From Promethearchaeota archaeon (lineage in GTDB: Archaea > Asgardarchaeota > Hermodarchaeia > Hermodarchaeales > Hermodarchaeaceae), in contig JBHLMI010000027.1 of assembly GCA_048938295.1 (NCBI GenBank), positions 15,427-35,426 on the forward strand: 20,000 nucleotides of DNA, read 5' to 3'. Every line of letters begins with the position of its first letter. Position 1 is the stretch's first letter. The notes under the pieces are model-generated. The model was not told the origin of the DNA. It saw only the letters and a program-made list of their open reading frames with translations, and did not search any database. Below are positions 4-20,000 of the stretch, in pieces. Made by a program: the position numbers and the translations under genes.

Positions 4-1236
4 TCAAACCATTACAGAATCTGGGTGTAACCCTACACCCTCTATCCCGTCCACGACAAAAGCTTCCGGGACTGCTTTTCGACCAATATTGTATCCACCA
101 TTAACATCTGCATTTATTATATGACCCTTGGATGAGCGGAATAATCCTCTTTCAATTCTCTTGCCAATATAGCTATGTTGATGTTTGATTGGCTCTTCAT
201 CGAGGAAGCTCACTTTTGAGGTATGACTCTCATCAACTAGAATCAGGTCAATACCTACCATTTTGGCTTTGTATTTTATTTGTCGAACAAGTGTCAAAAA
301 TGGTATGCCTACGAAATTCTGGTTTATCCGCTTACCTAAACCGATGTACTGTTTCCACATCGGATTATATCCAACAACAATTGCTCCAAAACCATGAACC
401 ATGCAATAGGAGATAATCTGGCGAGAGACCTTATGAAAGAAATCGATAATTTTGTTCGTTCGTTTCAGTAACAATCGCTGCAGTCGACGTGTCTGAAACC
501 CTAATCCTTGTTTATCTCGGATCGAAATGAGTCGTGCTCTTTCTTTGTTATAATATTGATTGACGGATTTGATAACCCCGCCTTTAACACGCCAAGGCTT
601 TAACCCTGCGTTGTTGACCACAGTTACAAGATTATTCAGTCCTAAATCAATACTAATAACACGACTTGAATCAAGTTCTAAATCAATAGGGTTTTTCTCA
701 TATACAATTTCTAAAATGTAATGGTTGCCTTTGGGAATAATTCTGACATGACGGAATGATCCACGTATTCGAGTTTTTATAGGCAGTAAATGAGCTTTTT
801 TCGGAAACCATAGAAGCCCGTTTTTGATATTACATTGTTGATTTGTGAAGATTATGAGAGTTTCTCCATTTTTCGGTTTGTATCGCGGTAACCTTGGGCG
901 CCCTAAATATTTCTCTGGATGAATCTTCCAATCCTTAAGAGTAATAAAGAAAGCCTTCCAATTCTGGTCTAGCCGACGAAGTACTTGTTGAGCAGTCTGT
1001 AATGGAAGGTTTCGATATGCACTTGTGGTTTTTAGTAGACTATACAATTCTCCATATCTAATCCAACGACCTTGAAAAATGAAAGTTTGACGAATGTGAT
1101 AATTAGCTAGATTATAGAGGTTCTTTGCTAGGTGGCATAGTTTCGAAATTGGCAGAGATGGGCGAAGCTGAATACGTTCAGTAAGATACGTGTGCCTTCC
1201 TCCCGTAGATCTGATTGTTAGATCCCATTGGCGTTG
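4..1236 (-). CDS. tnpB: TnpB-family RNA-guided nuclease (OrfB_IS605-like). The supplied ORF (TTG start at 1047) is N-terminally short; the same frame stays open to 1236
   Basis: Motifs VISIDLGLNNLVTVV and INADVNGGYNIGRKAV. Reading upstream of the TTG gives TYLTERIQLRPSLPISKLCHLAKNLYNLANYHIRQTFIFQGRWIRYGELYSLLKTT, which has TnpB N-terminal character. Confidence 0.88.
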   Translation of the reverse strand, partial: QRQWDLTIRSTGGRHTYLTERIQLRPSLPISKLCHLAKNLYNLANYHIRQTFIFQGRWIRYGELYSLLKTTSAYRNLPLQTAQQVLRRLDQNWKAFFITLKDWKIHPEKYLGRPRLPRYKPKNGETLIIFTNQQCNIKNGLLWFPKKAHLLPIKTRIRGSFRHVRIIPKGNHYILEIVYEKNPIDLELDSSRVISIDLGLNNLVTVVNNAGLKPWRVKGGVIKSVNQYYNKERARLISIRDKQGLGFQTRRLQRLLLKRTNKIIDFFHKVSRQIISYCMVHGFGAIVVGYNPMWKQYIGLGKRINQNFVGIPFLTLVRQIKYKAKMVGIDLILVDESHTSKVSFLDEEPIKHQHSYIGKRIERGLFRSSKGHIINADVNGGYNIGRKAVPEAFVVDGIEGVGLHPDSVMV

Positions 1237-2654: not shown

Positions 2655-3596
2655 ATGACAATGACAAACGAATGTACGATATGCAAGGCAGAATCAGTTA
2701 TGTCTCGACCCTACTCAGGTGAAGTGCTTTGTGCGCGCTGCTTCAAGGACTCTGTTACCAATGCTGTGCGGATGGCTATTTCAAAGTACAATATGCTTGA
2801 ACGCACAGATCGAATTGCTGTTGGCTATTCAGGGGGAAAAGATAGCACCGTACTCTTAGCGATTCTGGTTGAGATCCAGCAACGTTTCCCTGAATCGGAA
2901 GTCATAGCTATAACCCTCGAAGAAGGCAACAAACAAGATCTTGCACGTCAAGAGGTGTTACAAAGTGTCACGAACACGCTCAAAGTAGAACATATAACAG
3001 CCTCATATCAGGATATGTTTTCCCTTACGCTTGATGAAATCGCGACTCAGGCACGAGCTATACAATCACCCCTCTCCCCATGTGCTTATTGTGGAACCCT
3101 TAGGCGACAGGGACTGAACCTGCTAGCTCGCAAAATTCAAGCCGATAAATTAGCCTTAGGGCACAATCTGGATGATGAAGTTCAATCGATGCTAATGAAT
3201 CTCATTCGTGGAGATTTACCCCGATTATCACGGATTACTCCACACCTGAAGGGTGTTTCTGGCTGGCTAGTACCCCGAATTAAACCCCTGTTTCATATTC
3301 TCGAATCTGATCTTGACCTCTTCGCTAAATTACTTGGGTATCCTGTCTACCATCCCCCCTGTCCCTACAAAGAAACCTCACTTCGCTCTGAATTCCGTGA
3401 ATGGCTCAACATATTCGAAGCCAAACATCCTGGCTCTAAATATAACCTTCATGCTACCTTCACGAAAATCATCGAAACCATTCAACAAGAAGAAGTTCCG
3501 TTCCAAAAATGTCAGAGTTGTGGGGAAATCACATCCCAGCGAATATGTGCAGTATGCCTTCATAAGAAAGCCCTGGGCTTCTCATCATCAAAATAG
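2655..3596 (+). CDS. tRNA 2-thiolation protein, TtuA/Ncs6/CTU1 family (PP-loop ATPase with zinc fingers)
   Basis: CxxC...CxxC N-terminus, SGGKDST PP-loop, CAYCGTLRR, C-terminal CQSCGE...CAVC. Confidence 0.9.
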   Translation: MTMTNECTICKAESVMSRPYSGEVLCARCFKDSVTNAVRMAISKYNMLERTDRIAVGYSGGKDSTVLLAILVEIQQRFPESEVIAITLEEGNKQDLARQEVLQSVTNTLKVEHITASYQDMFSLTLDEIATQARAIQSPLSPCAYCGTLRRQGLNLLARKIQADKLALGHNLDDEVQSMLMNLIRGDLPRLSRITPHLKGVSGWLVPRIKPLFHILESDLDLFAKLLGYPVYHPPCPYKETSLRSEFREWLNIFEAKHPGSKYNLHATFTKIIETIQQEEVPFQKCQSCGEITSQRICAVCLHKKALGFSSSK

Positions 3597-3604
3597 GATA
3601 AGGG

Positions 3605-3955
3605 GTGGACGATGAACCCCGACGGTCGTCAACCCTCCCTGAAGCCGTACTCACAGCCAGGTCTCAGACCCGGATCTCGGAAGCATCTACAGTACAGGCT
3701 TACGCTGCTCCCTCCCGGGCCTAGCTGGTTTCACCCGATAAAGACGATTCAGCCCTTCCTACGAAAAGCCTACCGCCACCAGCGATCCTCCGAGGCGGAT
3801 CATCACAGCCTTAAACAGTGAGTCGTACAACAGGTCAGAAAGCCTAACATCGGCATTCAGCCCGCCGTATAGAGCGTTTGCGGTGCAGGGGAGCCTTAGC
3901 CAGCCCGTAGCGGTGCTGCCGGGCTTCTAGCCCCCCGCCTAGGCTCACCGTCCAC
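3605..3955 (-). ncRNA. Signal recognition particle 7S RNA
   Basis: Minus strand carries the domain IV signature GCTAGGCCCGGGAGGGAGCAGC (3704-3725). The ends close as an 11-bp helix GTGGACGGTGA/TCATCGTCCAC (3945-3955 with 3605-3615). GC-rich; the antisense ORF 3612..3821 is spurious. Confidence 0.88.
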
Positions 3956-5120: not shown

Positions 5121-5229
5121 TGGTGGGCCGAGAGGGACTCGAACCCTCGACCATCGCGGTGTAAGCGCGATATCATAGCCCTCTAGTCTAAGAGAATATC
5201 CTCCTCTCAGATAGCTAGACTATCGGCCC
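5121..5229 (-). tRNA. tRNA-Val(TAC) with a 32-nt D-loop intron (5181-5212), CCA encoded
   Basis: GGGCCGA/TCGGCCC acceptor; anticodon arm TCGCG-CTTACAC-CGCGA; T-arm GAGGG-TTCGAGT-CCCTC. Removing 32 nt gives a 77-nt tRNA. Confidence 0.93.
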
Positions 5230-10634: not shown

Positions 10635-11928
10635 TCACAATTCATCGAAAGTGTGGATGCGCATTTTCGCCGGTTTCTTTACAATGTTGCCAACTCGCAC
10701 CCCAATAATTAATTCGACGCCACGATCTTCGGCAATATCAATGAGGCGTTGTGTGATAACGCCATCTAAGATAAGCACTTTAGCTTTATCGAGTTCTTGC
10801 AAATCGTTAGCCAGTTCACCCACGTGGGTTTCCTTTAACTGTTTAAACTTCTCATCTATGATGACTGCCATCATCGTCTGTTGAATCTTTTGAGCAGAAT
10901 CAAGCACCGGCTTTGGGATTCCCAAATCCTTCATCTTTGGCTCTGGTTTTCTTTCAGCTGTCATTCGTGTGCTAGAGGCAGTACGCGTGGGTGTTCGCCG
11001 CTGTTTCTTTGCCTTCTCAGGAGTTCGACGTGTACGTTTCTTCTCCTTCGGTTTCGCTTTTACTGGTGCTTTTCCTAATACCTGCTCTGCTGGAATCTTA
11101 TTACGTAGGGCTTTAGTAATCTCTTTGTGAGTGAGCTCCTCTACTTCTCTACCAGTAGGTGCTCTAGCCACATAATCAACCTTGATGGTCTGTGCAAGTT
11201 CTTTTAGAATTAAATCTCCACCGCGATCACCATCGAGAAATGCAATCACACTTTTATCCTTGGCAATGTCAGCGATAGATTTAGGAATCGATGTCCCCTC
11301 AACTGCAACAGCATTCTTGACACCAGATCTCAACAGGGCTAAGACATCCGCTCGGCCCTCTACAATGATAATGATCTTTGATGTCTCTACCTCTGGTCCC
11401 GCAGGAAGTCTTTCTTTACCAAATTTGATAATCTCTGCAGTTCTTGCCTGTTGAAGAACCGTATCTGTCATTTCCTGAGAATCCGGAGAGATTTCCCCTT
11501 CCCAGTCCCGTAGCAAATCTACTGCACGATTCACAATTTGTTGCCGCTTTTCTTCGCGGACATCCTCGAGTTTTTCAAGGGTTATTTTAGCTGCACAGGG
11601 GCCAACTCTGTCCACTGTTTCCATCGCGGCTGCAAGGATTGCTGTTTCAGTCCGATCTAGACTACAGGGGATAGTGATGGTGCCCTTTGATTTTCCACTC
11701 TCAGTGTGAAGCTCGACTTTTATTCGACCAATCCGCCCCGATTGTTGTAATTCTCTTAGATCTAAATCTTCACCGATTACCCCTTCACATCGCTGATATG
11801 AAGTGTAGGCCCTCTGTTTGACCGAAGAGAGCACCTACGACATCGGGGGTCTCAACTACTCCATCTATCTCGATTTTACCATGAATACAATACTTCGTAG
11901 TACCAGTACCTTCTGCATTTGCTCCCAT
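10635..11928 (-). CDS. dnaG: Archaeal DnaG primase-like protein; two exons split by a 28-nt BHB-like intron
   Basis: Exon 2: [21 protein letters not shown], Toprim IVEGRADV...[10 protein letters not shown]. Exon 1 in another frame: [41 protein letters not shown]. Joined across 11777-11804. Confidence 0.88.
11777..11804 (-). other. 28-nt BHB-like intron in dnaG mRNA
   Basis: GCCU-AC^A-CUUCA-(UAUCAGCGAUG)-UGAAG-GGGU-AA^U. Excision joins CAAACAGAGGGCCTAC to TCGGTGAAGATTTAGAT = QTEGLLGEDLD. Confidence 0.8.
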
Positions 11929-12064
11929 AATCGTCACCTTGTGAAATGATTTATGATATGTCAGTGTGGGCGTGTGATATTGAGAACGCCACTTTGAAGT
12001 GATGTGTGATGATGCTTAGGTAATTTGGTAATTGTGATACAGCTAGCCTCATGAATGAGCCACA

Positions 12065-12484
12065 TTAAAATTTTGTGCCTTTCGAAGTTTTCTCGATTCG
12101 TTTCAGTCCCTCAATTACCCTCACACGCCAACAAAACGCTCGCCTTAGCTGGTACCGTTCTCGATGAAGGATTGACACGCCCCGCCCTTCTAATTGCTCA
12201 GTTAGTCGTCTTGTCAATTGCCCTCCCCGTCGATCAAAATCAAATAGGATGAGTAAACGAGGAATATTAGCCAATTCATCAGCTAAACTAATGATACTGT
12301 GACCCGCAAGCATGTAAATAGGTCCACTCAAGCCTAATCCCCGTAATGCGGTGATATCTTTAATCCCCTCTACTACTATTGTTATACCCTCTTCTGAGAG
12401 GTTATTTAAGAGCTGAAGGCCTTTTACAAAACGCTCTTCCAGTCGTTCCTGGTTAGTTTGAGTCGCTTCGCGTTGTGGGCACAT
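12065..12484 (-). CDS. Small Toprim-domain protein (UPF0292-like)
   Basis: GITIVVEGIKDITALRGLGLSGPIY...LILFDFDRRGGQLTRRL. Confidence 0.82.
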   Translation of the reverse strand: MCPQREATQTNQERLEERFVKGLQLLNNLSEEGITIVVEGIKDITALRGLGLSGPIYMLAGHSIISLADELANIPRLLILFDFDRRGGQLTRRLTEQLEGRGVSILHRERYQLRRAFCWRVRVIEGLKRIEKTSKGTKF

Positions 12485-12616
12485 GATAATTCGCCAAAAC
12501 TACTTACCAGGGTCACTGTGCTAGCTGGCTCTTATATTTCTCTGGTAATGGACTGTAAGTATCGGTGTACTTTTATATCACACAGAATATGCCCGAAGGG
12601 TAATGGTGTATTATTT

Positions 12617-13714
12617 GTGAACAGCCTTCCACCTAGCGTAATAAAGATTGCACAGCATACCCAAGAAGTGCTAACCATAGAGGACTTAGTTGCTGCCTTT
12701 GCACGGCAAGAAAAACCTCGTGGATATATTGGTGTTGAACCCAGTGGATTATTTCATGTGGGATGGCTCGGGTGGGTCCAAAAGCTCAATGAACTGGTGG
12801 ATATGGGTGTGCGCATGGAAATTCTCCTCGCTACTTGGCATGCTCAAGTAAACGACAAATTTGGAGGCAGTATTGAAAAAATTAGACGTTGTGCTGAATA
12901 CCTACGTCACTGCTTTGTCGCATTAAAAGTAGATACTACCAAAGTACACATCATAACCGCAGAAGACTTAATGCGTCGCCTTGAATACTGGGAAAGAATT
13001 CTGCGAGTGGCCAAGAATCTCACTCTCGCTCGAGTACGCCGATCGACTGACATAATGGGTCGAACTGAGGAGGAAGCCGCTATTGACTTCTCTAAGCTCA
13101 TCTATCCGCTCTTACAGGTAACGGATATCATAGATCAACAATACCAAATCTGTCTTTCTGGGATGGATCAGCGTCGTGCACATGTGCTAGCCCGCGAAGT
13201 GGCCGATAAGATGAAACTAGGGTGGAAACCTATAGGCATTCATATGCCCCTTCTTCTCGGGCTCACTGGAGCTGCTCGGATGGACGTCTCCTCCGAGTTC
13301 ACAGCGCAAGACTTGTCTATAGAAATCAAGATGTCAAAATCAAAACCTGGCGATGCCATTTTCATTCATGACCCGCCTCGAGTAATCAGAAGGAAAATCA
13401 AGAATGCTTACTGTCCTGCAGGAGAAGTGGAAAATAATCCAATACTCAATTACGTTCGAAATATCCTGTTTATGCAAGATGGCTATACTCTACACATAGA
13501 GCGAGCCGAGAAATATGGTGGGCCATTAAGTCTTACGAGCGCTGATGAACTCGAATCACTGTATGCTGCAGGAGCCATTCATCCATTGGATTTGAAAGAG
13601 GCAGCAGCTAAGGCTCTTTGCGATTTTCTTGAACCGATAAGGAAATACTTCGAAGATAATCCTGAGGCAAAGAAACTCTATGAAGAAATCACGGAATTCC
13701 AGGTAACCCGATAA
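12617..13714 (+). CDS. tyrS: Tyrosyl-tRNA synthetase (archaeal/eukaryal type)
   Basis: YIGVEPSGLFHVGWLGWVQKL (HIGH region), GMDQRRAHVLAREVA, KMSKSKPGDAIF, AYCPAGEVENNPIL. Supplied ORF opens at 12458. GTG 12617 is preferred because it follows a TATA-like TTTTATAT at about 12568-12577. Confidence 0.88.
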   Translation: MNSLPPSVIKIAQHTQEVLTIEDLVAAFARQEKPRGYIGVEPSGLFHVGWLGWVQKLNELVDMGVRMEILLATWHAQVNDKFGGSIEKIRRCAEYLRHCFVALKVDTTKVHIITAEDLMRRLEYWERILRVAKNLTLARVRRSTDIMGRTEEEAAIDFSKLIYPLLQVTDIIDQQYQICLSGMDQRRAHVLAREVADKMKLGWKPIGIHMPLLLGLTGAARMDVSSEFTAQDLSIEIKMSKSKPGDAIFIHDPPRVIRRKIKNAYCPAGEVENNPILNYVRNILFMQDGYTLHIERAEKYGGPLSLTSADELESLYAAGAIHPLDLKEAAAKALCDFLEPIRKYFEDNPEAKKLYEEITEFQVTR

Positions 13715-16646: not shown

Positions 16647-16748
16647 TTGTCACAGGATTCTGGCTAATGCCGGAACGGAATCAAGGCAAAATAAAAACCT
16701 TTGCTTACAGTCAACCCTCCACTCCTAGCATAAAGAAAGGAAAAGAAG

Positions 16749-16867
16749 TGGCGCAGTTCACGCTTTTCCCGACACCTCGCGGATATCAGTACTCAGAGCG
16801 ACGAAACCGGCTTAACTTCCGGGATCTGACGAGACCGGGTGTGACCCAGCTTCTATGACCGCGCCAC
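16749..16867 (-). rRNA. 5S ribosomal RNA
   Basis: Minus strand: GTGGCGC...ACACCCGGTCTCGTCAGATCCCGGAAGTTAAGCCGGTTTCG...GCGCCAC. 119 nt with helix I GTGGCGC/GCGCCAC. Confidence 0.93.
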
Positions 16868-17189: not shown

Positions 17190-18572
17190 TGCATTGTGGC
17201 TCTATTCGAAAGACAACCGAATTGGACTAAAGCACATCTTATGAAAACAGATTTCATAACGCGAACGGTATGGTCACGTTTACCGAATATATCTAAAAAT
17301 TTAGTCAGAAAATTGCGTCGTATATACACAAGAGCAATTAATGTTTTTTTGATTGACTTAGAAGAAAACAAAGGAAGCATCAAAGAAACTTATCACGAAC
17401 TTCGTAACAATGAATAGTTTTCAAAATTATCCGCGAAAATGCTTAACCAAGCATCACAGGAAGCATTTGTTTGGTTTAATTTAAGACGAAAGGAGAGAGT
17501 TCTAACAGATCAAGAAATACAGAATTGGACAAAATGGGCAAAGAAACAAGGCATTGCGAATTTTGATCCCTCACAAAGTCTTCCAAGATTAATTTCTCAC
17601 TCCGATTATCTTAAAGGACGGCCAGGAAAAAAACACGGTCAATGGCCGCAGACAGCAATTGATGGTGCACGGTTTTACATTGATTCAATTACGAATAATA
17701 TTCTAGTGTCAATCGATAAAGTTGCTAAGAGAACCCAGGTTGTAATTGGTGGAGAACCTGAAAAGCTTCTTCGCCAAGCAATTTCTGGTATACTATCACT
17801 GAAAATCGGTTCTTCACGGCTTCTTGTCAAAGACGGAGTTACACAAATGGCTACTCCTATCCGAGTATCTGTTAATATTCCAGATATTTCAAGCCTTGAA
17901 CAGCCAACGCTGATAGGTGTGGATCTAGGACTAAATACATTAGCTGCTGTGGTTGCGCTAACTTTTGATCGAAGGATCCACCCAGCCAAATCGATCTCTG
18001 GAAAACAACTCAAACACCGTTTAGCATCACTTTGGGCAAAACGAAAAAACGCCGCACGCAAACAAAAATCAGAAAGTATACAAGATATCGATGAAAAGAC
18101 ACAACGAGTAATCCAATATTGGATTCATGTGACAGCAAAAGCAGTAATTAACTATGCAAGTCAGTTCCCACATCCAATAATCGTTCTAGAAGATCTTCGA
18201 AATTATATTCCAACGAAAAAGCGAACTCGATGGGCAAGTTCCTCAATGAGAGACCAGCTTAGTAAATGGGCGCGGGGAAGACTCTTTGAAGCAATTTGTA
18301 TGAAAGCTAGTCTACGTAATTTACCTGTAATCAGAGTCAATGCAGCATATTCTTCTCACGTCTGCCCTAGACAATGTCTTTGTCTTCTACCTCAAGGATA
18401 TTTCGAAGTGTTTCACTGTCCTGCATGTGGCGCAAAAGTTCCACGAGACATTAGTGCAGCTACTGAAATTGCACGTCGTGGTCTTCATCAGGTTACAGAC
18501 AATAAAGTGCAGAACTCTAAGGTTCTTGGCAACGAGAACACATCATCCTTGACCCAATCAGCGGCAGGATGA
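17190..18572 (+). pseudogene. Second TnpB-like nuclease gene, same frame interrupted by a single TAG (17415-17417)
   Basis: LIGVDLGLNTLAAV, IIVLEDLRNY, SSHVCPRQC...CPACGAKVPRDISAATEIARRG. ORFs 17196..17417 and 17439..18572 share a frame, with coding-like residues FSKLSAK between them. Confidence 0.75.
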
Positions 18573-18891: not shown

Positions 18892-19539
18892 TCATGCTTC
18901 AGTTAATCTACTGATGGGGAACCGGATGTAGTAGTAAGGTTTTCCATCTGTGTAATTGACTCTTGGGGATCTCGAAATGATATCGAAATGTTTCTTTAAA
19001 AGGCGAACAAGTTCCTTCAGAAAATTCTTATCGCGCTGTTTTAACTGAACCCGTTTTCTCGTTAAGGAACCATCCGTGTCAATCAAACCAAACATGTAAT
19101 GTTTGAAAAGAAATGGATCTTTTGCAATCAAGGAGGGTACCCTCATATTTTGTTTCTTCCCAGATTGAAAGCCCAATTTATTGAAGAAGAAGTAAGCTGC
19201 TGCACGCTGGATGTTTATGGCATAGCAGTTCTTCTTTCTCTTATCTCGCAGAACACGCGGTTGAAAATCAAAGAGGTCCTTGACTAGCACCGATAATTGT
19301 TTTAGGTAATTTTTCCGACCAACAACCTTTACTCGATAATGATAACCGCCTTTCCTTCGTTGGCACTTATTCAGGTTGCCATCACCCGCAACAACACCAG
19401 CAAAATATGCAACCTTATCACTAATTTCCGGAATTTTTGTCTTTGATTTTTTGGTGCAGATGAAATCCTTCTGAATCCTGTGCCAAACACCTGCTTCATC
19501 TAAAGCCTGTGAAATTGAATGTATTTTGACACCCTTCAT
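18892..19539 (-). CDS. LAGLIDADG homing endonuclease
   Basis: Two motifs, YFAGVVAGDGNLN and YMFGLIDTDGSL. The supplied ORF start (19647) lies inside tRNA-Thr, so the MKGVKIHSI start is more plausible. Confidence 0.88.
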   Translation of the reverse strand: MKGVKIHSISQALDEAGVWHRIQKDFICTKKSKTKIPEISDKVAYFAGVVAGDGNLNKCQRRKGGYHYRVKVVGRKNYLKQLSVLVKDLFDFQPRVLRDKRKKNCYAINIQRAAAYFFFNKLGFQSGKKQNMRVPSLIAKDPFLFKHYMFGLIDTDGSLTRKRVQLKQRDKNFLKELVRLLKKHFDIISRSPRVNYTDGKPYYYIRFPISRLTEA

Positions 19540-19586
19540 TCTTAGTGTGTTCTTTACAAAATTGTCTAAAAACTCGTTATTTGAAA

Positions 19587-19661
19587 TGGAGCCTCCGCCG
19601 GGATTTGAACCCGGGACCATTGGCTTACAAGGCCAACGCACCACCACTATGCTACGGAGGC
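19587..19661 (-). tRNA. tRNA-Thr(TGT), CCA encoded, no intron
   Basis: GCCTCCG/CGGAGGC acceptor, TTGGC-CTTGTAA-GCCAA anticodon arm, CCGGG-TTCAAAT-CCCGG T-arm, discriminator T, CCA. Confidence 0.94.
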
Positions 19662-19756
19662 TTATTTGAAGGTATACCTGCTCAATAGATTAATCATTCG
19701 GAGAAGGTGGGTGTGTTTGGAATCGGATGCATATAAGCCAAAAAATGTTTTGCCAT

Positions 19757-19802
19757 CCGAGAGAGCTGCTGGTCGTGGGTTCAATCCCCGCTCGAGGCTC
19801 CA
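19757..19802 (+). tRNA. Orphan tRNA 3' half (T-arm + acceptor 3' strand + CCA), split-tRNA candidate or remnant
   Basis: TGGTC GTGGG-TTCAATC-CCCGC TCGAGGC T CCA. No GCCTCGA-like 5' half found in cis. TATA-like ATATAA at 19731-19736. Confidence 0.5.
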
Positions 19803-19842
19803 TTTTCTTATTTTCAAGTAGACTTTCAAGACTAAAAAAAGA

Positions 19843-19953
19843 TGGTGCGGGGGCCGGGCTTCGAACCCGGGAACTCCTACGAGACAGGATCTTAAGTCCT
19901 GCGCCTTTGACCAAGCTTGGCTGTGGGGTCTACGAATGGGTAGATACCCCCGC
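19843..19953 (-). tRNA. tRNA-Leu(TAA) with a 23-nt intron between nt 8 and 9 (19923-19945), CCA encoded
   Basis: GCGGGGG/CCCCCGC acceptor, CAGGA-CTTAAGA-TCCTG anticodon arm, class II variable arm, CCGGG-TTCGAAG-CCCGG. Splicing gives GCGGGGGTAGCCAAGC. Confidence 0.92.
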
Positions 19954-20000
19954 GGCTTAGTCTTCGGGACGCTGACCCTTGGACAGGTCCCCCGCACAGC

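Follow-up and report, generated by a model that had tools for sequence, protein, structure and literature searches.

How does an archaeon make a full-length DnaG from a gene in which a highly conserved motif is interrupted and the reading frame broken? The question is raised by a stretch of 20,000 nucleotides (nt) from a Promethearchaeota archaeon (contig JBHLMI010000027.1, positions 15,427 to 35,426; hereafter the window, numbered from its first base), whose minus strand carries dnaG, the gene of a protein that in archaea is a subunit of the RNA exosome (the exosome/primase protein). A first-pass annotation of this DNA had proposed that dnaG is broken by a 28-nt insert at 11777-11804, and our analysis bears this out to the nucleotide. 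We consider it very probable that these 28 nt, at 11804..11777 on the minus strand, form an archaeal bulge-helix-bulge (BHB) intron in the dnaG messenger RNA (mRNA) of a Hermodarchaeota archaeon; the rival explanations, even taken together, are unlikely.

The layout of the gene shows where the interruption falls. The start codon, an ATG at 11928-11926 (-), stands 5 nt after a Shine-Dalgarno-like GGTGA (11934..11938 (-), read from the sequence), and the frame upstream of the ATG, which reads K-V-(T/A)-I-M in relatives, suggests that this motif is kept there. Exon 1 (11805..11928 (-)) comprises 41 codons and the first base (C 11805) of Leu42, whilst exon 2 (10635..11776 (-)) runs from the last two bases (TC) of Leu42 to the stop codon. 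Between them lies the phase-1 insert, ACUUCAUAUCAGCGAUGUGAAGGGGUAA (11777..11804 (-)), whose length is no multiple of 3. When it is left in place, the exon-1 frame (open reading frame (ORF) 11785..11937 (-)) reads 41 codons, then HFISAM, and ends at a TGA within the insert (11785..11787 (-), read from the sequence); the remainder of DnaG is held by the ORF 10635..11834 (-), the first 16 residues of which have no match in homologues.

Removal of 11804..11777 in silico (ACTTCATATCAGCGATGTGAAGGGGTAA, 28 nt) brings both parts into frame and gives a protein of 421 residues, which matches the NCBIfam profile NF003108 (DNA primase DnaG) with 525.5 bits, well above its cut-off of 300 bits, over profile positions 1-419 of 419. 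Many deletions of 3n+1 nt reopen the dnaG frame, but GQTEGLLGEDLDL comes from the 11804..11777 deletion alone, and among all frame-restoring 28-nt deletions only this one yields Leu-Leu. Both the Leu-Leu and its spacing, in the motif GQTEGLLGE(D/E)LDL, are invariant in the ~65 intact Asgard DnaG homologues that we retrieved. The earlier proposal that excision restores the conserved archaeal DnaG motif is thus borne out by the full-length profile match and the invariant Leu-Leu, and its corollary, that splicing is essential for full-length DnaG, is supported by the exon-1 frame reaching a TGA inside the insert. The sequence therefore supports the view that the insert must be removed to yield full-length DnaG.

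Is the interruption peculiar to this one contig? The closest proteins and loci come from metagenome-assembled genomes of Candidatus Hermodarchaeota / Hermodarchaeia (Asgard, kingdom Promethearchaeati), and in 52 of the 53 DnaG protein clusters at >60% identity (P0001-P0052 and P0055) the gene call is N-terminally truncated, P0047 being the only cluster that is not. Many of these truncated calls begin with an out-of-frame read-through, ...RAYTSY.RCEG(V/A)(I/F)GEDLDL, and the DnaG homologues of other Asgard classes (<=55% identical) are intact. DNA could be read over the junction in 27 in-clade loci, which include 11 species-representative genomes (L001-L011), 11 metagenome contigs (L016-L026) and two loci (L097, L098) from protein-based look-ups; these look-ups gave seven loci in all, the others being L099-L103, of which L100 and L101 have the same inserts as L025 and L026. 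All 27 loci carry the insert at the identical nucleotide, between GG(C/T)CTAC and TCGG(T/C), so that the presence of the same insertion in related dnaG genes, put forward as a check in the first-pass annotation, could be confirmed. The insert is 28 nt long in 25 of the 27 loci and 31 nt in L097 and L098, where the extra bases extend the hairpin. Outgroups read GGxYTxCTCGGT without interruption, and the gene order around dnaG is conserved.

These loci bear on the simplest of the alternatives, namely that the insert is a sequencing or assembly error, or that dnaG is a decaying pseudogene. The raw sequence does have a broken frame, as such an artefact would; yet the same insert recurs in 27 loci, which were assembled independently, come from many samples and represent at least 11 species-level genomes, with both exons under purifying selection and with conserved gene order around them. 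We excluded error and decay on the strength of the 27 independent loci and the purifying selection, and give them next to no probability. In one of the metagenome contigs (L023, ~2900-3030), the first ~22 codons of exon 1 are swapped for unrelated in-frame sequence, so that tblastn aligns from residue 24 only, with the intron and the rest of the gene normal; this replacement is probably an assembly join or an indel.

With regard to the history of the insert, a covariance model of the intron and its flanks finds one copy per in-clade locus and no further copy in 258 kilobases of related sequence, and the intron is therefore no dispersed mobile element, as far as the sampled sequence goes. A protein search with the N-terminal 136 residues returned no members of the clade, just short fragments from other archaeal groups (<=70% identity). 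When a single intron-less allele (L096) is counted in, 27 of 28 in-clade loci have the insert. A single gain at the base of the lineage is the probable origin of the intron, which has almost never been lost since.

The intron-less allele itself deserves closer consideration. L096 is a 1524-nt JGI contig (sample IMG 3300036486, Ga0395754) that encodes P0047, and its junction, ...CAAACAGAGGGCCTAC|TCGGTGAAGAT..., is the predicted ligation product GGCCTAC|TCGGT, with flanking bases that permit no alternative placement of the boundaries. Because of this junction, the boundaries of the intron are fixed independently of any folding. The L096 protein is 99.65% identical over 286 residues to P0042, which is encoded on a 74-kilobase contig whose ORF calls comprise a 49-residue ORF and a restart 74 nt past its stop (counted from stop to Leu), as in the window; this ORF spacing implies that the P0042 contig carries the same 28-nt insert. 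If the sample is a metatranscriptome, L096 would be a spliced transcript; otherwise it would reflect an exact loss of the intron from the genome, of the kind described for cbf5 (PMC2738675). Further along the same contig (1165-1404), the Lys-rich C-terminal region has a frame break relative to the window and P0042, where ORFs of 359 and 79 residues overlap; an indel error within an A-rich stretch is the probable cause, and such an indel would fit a low-coverage or transcript-derived assembly.

Which parts of the locus are read by the ribosome can be judged from the pattern of substitutions. Over 19 distinct sequences, the mean pairwise difference per site at codon positions 1, 2 and 3 is 0.067, 0.065 and 0.31 in exon 1, and 0.089, 0.022 and 0.467 in exon 2. 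Since differences are concentrated at codon position 3, both exons appear to be translated, each in its own frame. The corresponding values for the insert are 0.062 in its stems, 0.035 in its bulges and 0.62 in its loop; stems and bulges thus vary less than third codon positions (0.31-0.47), with the loop free to change, and the insert, on this comparative pattern, evolves as an RNA structure and not as codons.

This pattern weighs on two explanations in which the insert would stay in the mRNA. In the first, the gene would be split in earnest, the 47-residue exon-1 peptide and an N-terminally truncated DnaG being made separately and acting together or alone. Gene callers do annotate two ORFs here, and split genes have precedents in some archaea, such as Nanoarchaeum. 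Exon 2 has neither a conserved start codon nor a ribosome-binding site, however, and the first in-frame start after the insert in the window is Met93, even though codons 42-92 are under strong purifying selection (0.022 at codon position 2); starts further upstream in the exon-2 frame are blocked by a TGA within the insert in most relatives (sequences read by eye), and the conserved BHB geometry would be left unexplained. Two separate products are accordingly hard to credit.

In the second, a programmed +1 frameshift within the insert would lengthen DnaG by ~9 residues, placed inside the conserved motif. The exon-2 frame does lie at +1 relative to exon 1 and is open from 11834 in the window, and cbf5 introns, too, were formerly taken for frameshift sites (PMC2738675). 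Against this, in 11 of the 17 distinct 28-nt inserts the exon-2 frame has a TGA of its own two codons before the stop of the exon-1 frame (L003, L004, L005, L007, L009, L019, L024 and L025 are among them, as read by eye), so that in most relatives the stops of both frames are 5 nt apart and the stop codon itself is essentially the one place left for a shift. The P-site codon at this place is unconserved (AUG, AUA or UUG) and cannot re-pair at +1; indeed, we found no conserved shift-prone site with both frames open at the insert. Nine extra residues would also split a motif of invariant length in all homologues, the free loop codons and co-varying stems follow the pattern of an RNA and not of a protein, and the intron-less L096 allele shows the insert to be dispensable. 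Such a frameshift is, to our minds, as implausible as the split gene.

If the insert is an RNA structure that has to be removed, what structure is it? Along the RNA, one encounters in order an exonic helix strand (GCCU, 11807..11810 (-)), a 5' bulge (ACA, 11804..11806 (-)), the intron hairpin (11783..11803 (-)), an intronic helix strand (GGGU, 11779..11782 (-)) and a 3' bulge (AAU, 11776..11778 (-)), which is the canonical succession of a BHB motif: helix strand, bulge, intron helix, loop, intron helix, helix strand, bulge. GCCU pairs with GGGU (11782-11779) as a central 4-bp helix, and the hairpin has a 9-bp stem (11803-11795 with 11791-11783; strands CUUCAUAUC/GAUGUGAAG) closed by the 3-nt loop AGC (11794-11792). 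The predicted cuts lie between C 11805 and A 11804 in the 5' bulge, which is invariant in all relatives, and between A 11777 and U 11776 in the 3' bulge, which in relatives may also read AUU or AGU; with both cuts placed behind the second bulge base, exactly 28 nt are removed. The fold described in the first-pass annotation is confirmed in its two 3-nt bulges (ACA and AAU), its 4-bp central helix with two G.U pairs (GCCU:GGGU) and its weak exon-side helix, for which a relaxed BHB had been proposed; the intron helix, put there at 5 bp, has 9.

Several features of this fold count against an intron of BHB type and have to be weighed. The exon-side helix consists of a single pair, G 11811 : C 11775, the adjoining positions being G/G and A/G, so that little closes the 3' bulge, and two of the four pairs of the central helix are G.U. 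When a 76-nt stretch is folded, the BHB conformer has -10.1 kcal/mol and the minimum free energy fold, which pairs the 5' strand of the central helix elsewhere, has -18.5 kcal/mol. A scan for compact BHB motifs gives 68 matches in the window and ~54 in shuffled sequence. The comparative data add that single mismatches occur (U.U in L009 and L010, G.G in L099, and G.A in the central helix of L019), that covariation is modest, with two pairs only, because the sequences are close, and that a shuffle control of pairing is no more than suggestive, the observed values being reached by 4-7 of 500 shuffles.

These points call for a more careful reading of the motif. Because its exon-side helix has only one G-C pair, the dnaG motif lacks the several exon-side pairs that close the 3' bulge in a strict hBHBh' and is of the relaxed BHB class. 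In thermodynamic folding the intron hairpin does appear, and the central helix is present in the centroid structure. As naive scans match about equally often in shuffled sequence, we dropped BHB geometry alone as evidence. With the boundaries fixed by protein homology and the intron-less relative, independently of folding, the result is a different one: a shuffled 28-mer gives an in-register BHB with an intron helix of >=5 bp in 1.6e-4 of 2 million trials, and one with a helix of >=7 bp in 1.8e-5, the native helix having 9 bp.

Conservation of the pairing points the same way. In 14 distinct sequences, 98.5% of the pair cells hold standard pairs (98.2% in the central helix, 98.4% in the intron stem); sliding the 3' partners by 1-3 columns lowers this share to 37-54%. 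Neither the 17 distinct 28-nt inserts nor the 31-nt variant depart from the BHB spacing. Two stem pairs have changed on both sides, from C-G to U-A in L007 and from U-A/U.G to C-G in L003 and L024, and the substitutions in the central helix are G.U to G-C and C-G to U.G. In L103 the top of the stem is wholly replaced (CUUCAUG-CAAAUAA-CAUGAAG), with the total length unchanged.

A short hairpin whose length is no multiple of 3 is also what a translational bypass element would look like, and here the ribosome would take off at Gly GGC (11811-09), skip the hairpin and land on GGG (11783-81), yielding TEG-VIGEDL. A hop from Gly to Gly would preserve the protein length found in homologues, and the byp elements known from mitochondria are similar in size to the dnaG insert. 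The product, however, would have V/A and I/F where every intact homologue has Leu-Leu, and the residues after the hop would vary among relatives (GTA ATC, GCA ATC, GCA TTC). GGC and GGG are not read by one Gly tRNA without mispairing, the take-off codon has no stop after it, and GGC to GGG is the sole length-preserving pair, so that no matched take-off and landing codons yield the conserved protein. The conserved 3-nt bulges and the 4-bp helix would have no role, and the intron-less L096 allele fits the splice junction and not the hop junction. A bypass is, then, very improbable.

We favour, instead, excision of the insert as a BHB intron. From the observed sequence, structure, conservation and intron-less junction we infer a route in which the RNA is cut and ligated and which would run as follows. 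In the pre-mRNA, the exonic GCCU would pair with the intronic GGGU, flanked by the ACA and AAU bulges, with the rest forming the 9-bp hairpin; the tRNA-splicing endonuclease EndA would cleave each bulge behind its second base, and ...GGCCUAC and UCGGU... would be joined by an RtcB-type ligase, giving the spliced k-mer CAAACAGAGGGCCTACTCGGTGAAGATTT over the junction. Ligation would create the codons CUA CUC (Leu-Leu) in the junction peptide FGQTEGLLGEDLDLR, and the first 41 codons would then be read in one frame with the 380 that follow. A ribosome that began at the true start of an unspliced mRNA would stop 6 codons into the insert, and splicing would therefore be obligatory for full-length DnaG. 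Published work on Asgard archaea agrees with such a step: their EndA is reported as an (alpha-beta)2 enzyme with an L1 loop, and enzymes of this type cut relaxed motifs (PMC5829648); non-canonical introns are reported to abound in their tRNAs (PMC11291895).

The window itself holds further inserts of this kind. An unannotated gene for tRNA-Val(UAC) (5121..5229 (-)) has a 32-nt insert in its D-loop (5212..5181; CUAG-CUA-[10-bp hairpin]-CUAG-AGG), and one for tRNA-Leu(UAA) (19843..19953 (-)) has a 23-nt insert at the non-canonical position 8/9 (19945..19923; GGGG-GUA-UCUAC-CCAUUC-GUAGA-CCCC-ACA). ARAGORN finds nothing in either unspliced sequence and calls both as normal cloverleafs after excision by the bulge rule; Rfam at the gathering threshold also misses both, with a partial match of 58 nt (5124-5181, 32 bits) at tRNA-Val. 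The archaeal signal recognition particle (SRP) RNA (3610..3950 (-), 123 bits) has a BHB-shaped insert at ~3897-3925 in its 5' hairpin, read by eye, of 29 nt (or 31 nt if the register is shifted) in place of 2 nt in the Rfam consensus (GCUA-GAA-GCCCG-12 nt-CGGGC-UGGC-UAA); this is possibly an intron as well. The 20-kilobase window thus contains four apparent BHB inserts, those in dnaG, in the two tRNAs that were checked in silico and in the SRP RNA. Because tRNA-Val and tRNA-Leu become detectable only after excision by the same rule, the host appears to process compact BHB introns routinely. In the related loci, ARAGORN found no tRNA genes.

Could the insert be removed from the RNA by other means, through another nuclease or a self-cleaving activity? 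The near absence of the exon-side helix and a stem sequence more conserved than pairing alone requires would both be in keeping with machinery other than EndA and RtcB. However, the geometry and the cut positions match EndA substrates exactly, two tRNAs in the window obey the same cut rule, and 28 nt is too small for the known self-splicing introns. We rate such machinery as a very poor candidate, on a par with the bypass, and EndA with an RtcB-type ligase as the probable agents.

The surroundings of these tRNAs show some further oddities. Upstream of tRNA-Leu stands an extra acceptor sequence, GCGGGGG (19995-19989), and the mechanical ORF over that region (19662..19997 (-)) is probably spurious. 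On the plus strand, 19745-19803 resembles the 3' part of a tRNA, with a T-arm (GUGGG-UUCAAUC-CCCGC) and an acceptor strand (UCGAGGC) followed by U and CCA; no matching 5' acceptor strand lies nearby, the sole GCCTCGA on that strand being at 13375, and the element may be one half of a split tRNA, a tRNA with heavy interruptions or the remnant of an integration site. A LAGLIDADG homing-endonuclease-like ORF (18892-19647 (-)) lies directly downstream of tRNA-Thr(UGU) (19590-19661), and two TnpB/IS605-OrfB-like genes are present (17439-18572 (+) and 4-1047 (-)), a cluster of mobile elements thus adjoining tRNA genes. Elsewhere, the ORF of the tyrosyl-tRNA synthetase (12458-13714 (+)) reaches ~55-60 codons upstream of the start of its family profile and overlaps the start of a divergent Toprim gene (12065-12484 (-)), and the same long call of 410 residues recurs on the P0042 contig. 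A 5S ribosomal RNA (rRNA) gene (16748-16866 (-), 77 bits) stands alone, with no other rRNA genes adjoining it within the window.

Why should an obligatory intron be kept in such a gene? Its near-universal retention across a phylum-level lineage, the excess conservation of its stem sequence and the four apparent BHB inserts in 20 kilobases leave room for two broader readings, which we think unlikely. The dnaG intron might be only the first of a larger number of mRNA BHB introns to come to light in these intron-rich genomes. It could also be a retained control point and not a passive relic, full-length DnaG being made only when EndA and RtcB capacity exists; this would make dnaG an Asgard counterpart of regulated splicing of the HAC1/XBP1 type.

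HAC1 and XBP1 are the eukaryotic examples of unconventional mRNA splicing, carried out by Ire1 together with Trl1 or RtcB. As proposed for dnaG, a small intron in the coding sequence is removed by a protein endonuclease and an RNA ligase, and its removal changes the frame, so that splicing decides which protein is made; they differ in the Ire1 nuclease, in a motif of paired stem-loops and in a proven regulatory role. A superficial resemblance extends to the bypass elements of T4 gene 60 and the mitochondrial byps of Magnusiomyces, which are likewise short, hairpin-forming, frame-breaking coding inserts missing from the protein, but which act at the ribosome and need matched take-off and landing codons, of which there are none at dnaG.

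Closer in mechanism are the BHB introns of archaeal tRNA genes, whose non-canonical forms were reportedly described by Marck and Grosjean in 2003. Architecture and cut rule are identical to those of the dnaG insert (Asgard examples in PMC11291895), and the machinery is presumably the same; the dnaG substrate, however, would be an mRNA, with no tRNA body to aid recognition and a one-pair exon-side helix, and the outcome would be the restoration of a reading frame. In Haloferax volcanii HVO_1309 (Schwarz 2020, PMC7714728), an mRNA likewise has a BHB motif at which the splicing endonuclease cuts, but there the intron lies in the 5' untranslated region, the coding sequence is uninterrupted, and the EndA of the host is homodimeric.

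The closest parallel is cbf5, a pseudouridine synthase gene with a pre-mRNA intron in Crenarchaeota that is said to go back to a report by Watanabe in 2002. The first-pass annotation had named it as the classic precedent, and rightly so: endonuclease-dependent mRNA splicing has, since 2002, been confirmed for no archaeal protein-coding gene but cbf5 (PMC2738675, PMC7714728), and as of 2020 the cbf5 intron was cited as the only archaeal mRNA BHB intron besides the Haloferax case in a 5' untranslated region (PMC7714728). The cbf5 introns measure 16-44 bp, have a BHB-like motif, have been gained and lost within lineages and are mis-annotated by gene callers (Yokobori 2009, PMC2738675). The dnaG insert shares what defines this type, being short and ORF-less, conserved in its lineage and variably present in close relatives. 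Both are short BHB-type introns in a coding sequence (dnaG, at 28 or 31 nt, falls within the cbf5 range), both interrupt a highly conserved motif, and both combine lineage-wide presence and occasional precise absence with routine mis-annotation, in hosts with a hetero-oligomeric EndA of broad specificity. They differ in gene and in lineage, cbf5 introns belonging to Sulfolobales and Desulfurococcales and the dnaG insert to Asgard Hermodarchaeota, and in length, which is far more uniform in dnaG (28 nt in 25 of 27 loci); moreover, cbf5 splicing was shown by reverse-transcription PCR and in vitro cleavage, whereas dnaG splicing is deduced.

We found no earlier report of a dnaG intron, or of any Asgard mRNA BHB intron, in the literature searched, the coverage of which is incomplete, with most subscription journals outside it. 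If spliced as proposed, dnaG would add a second gene family to cbf5, with an intron that is obligatory, in that it breaks the frame, and conserved over a whole lineage of the Asgard archaea, which are among the closest known relatives of eukaryotes; mRNA splicing by protein enzymes would then be no crenarchaeal oddity. The practical implications are of two kinds. Nearly every public Hermodarchaeota DnaG is mis-annotated as N-terminally truncated (the 52 of 53 clusters), and gene callers and tRNA finders overlook several genes in such genomes. At the same time, the locus offers a clean test case, the substrate being 28 nt long, the junction known and alleles with and without the intron available in nature. 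Set beside cbf5, the tRNA introns and HVO_1309, the dnaG intron would be a case of a known class of mechanism in a new gene and a new lineage.

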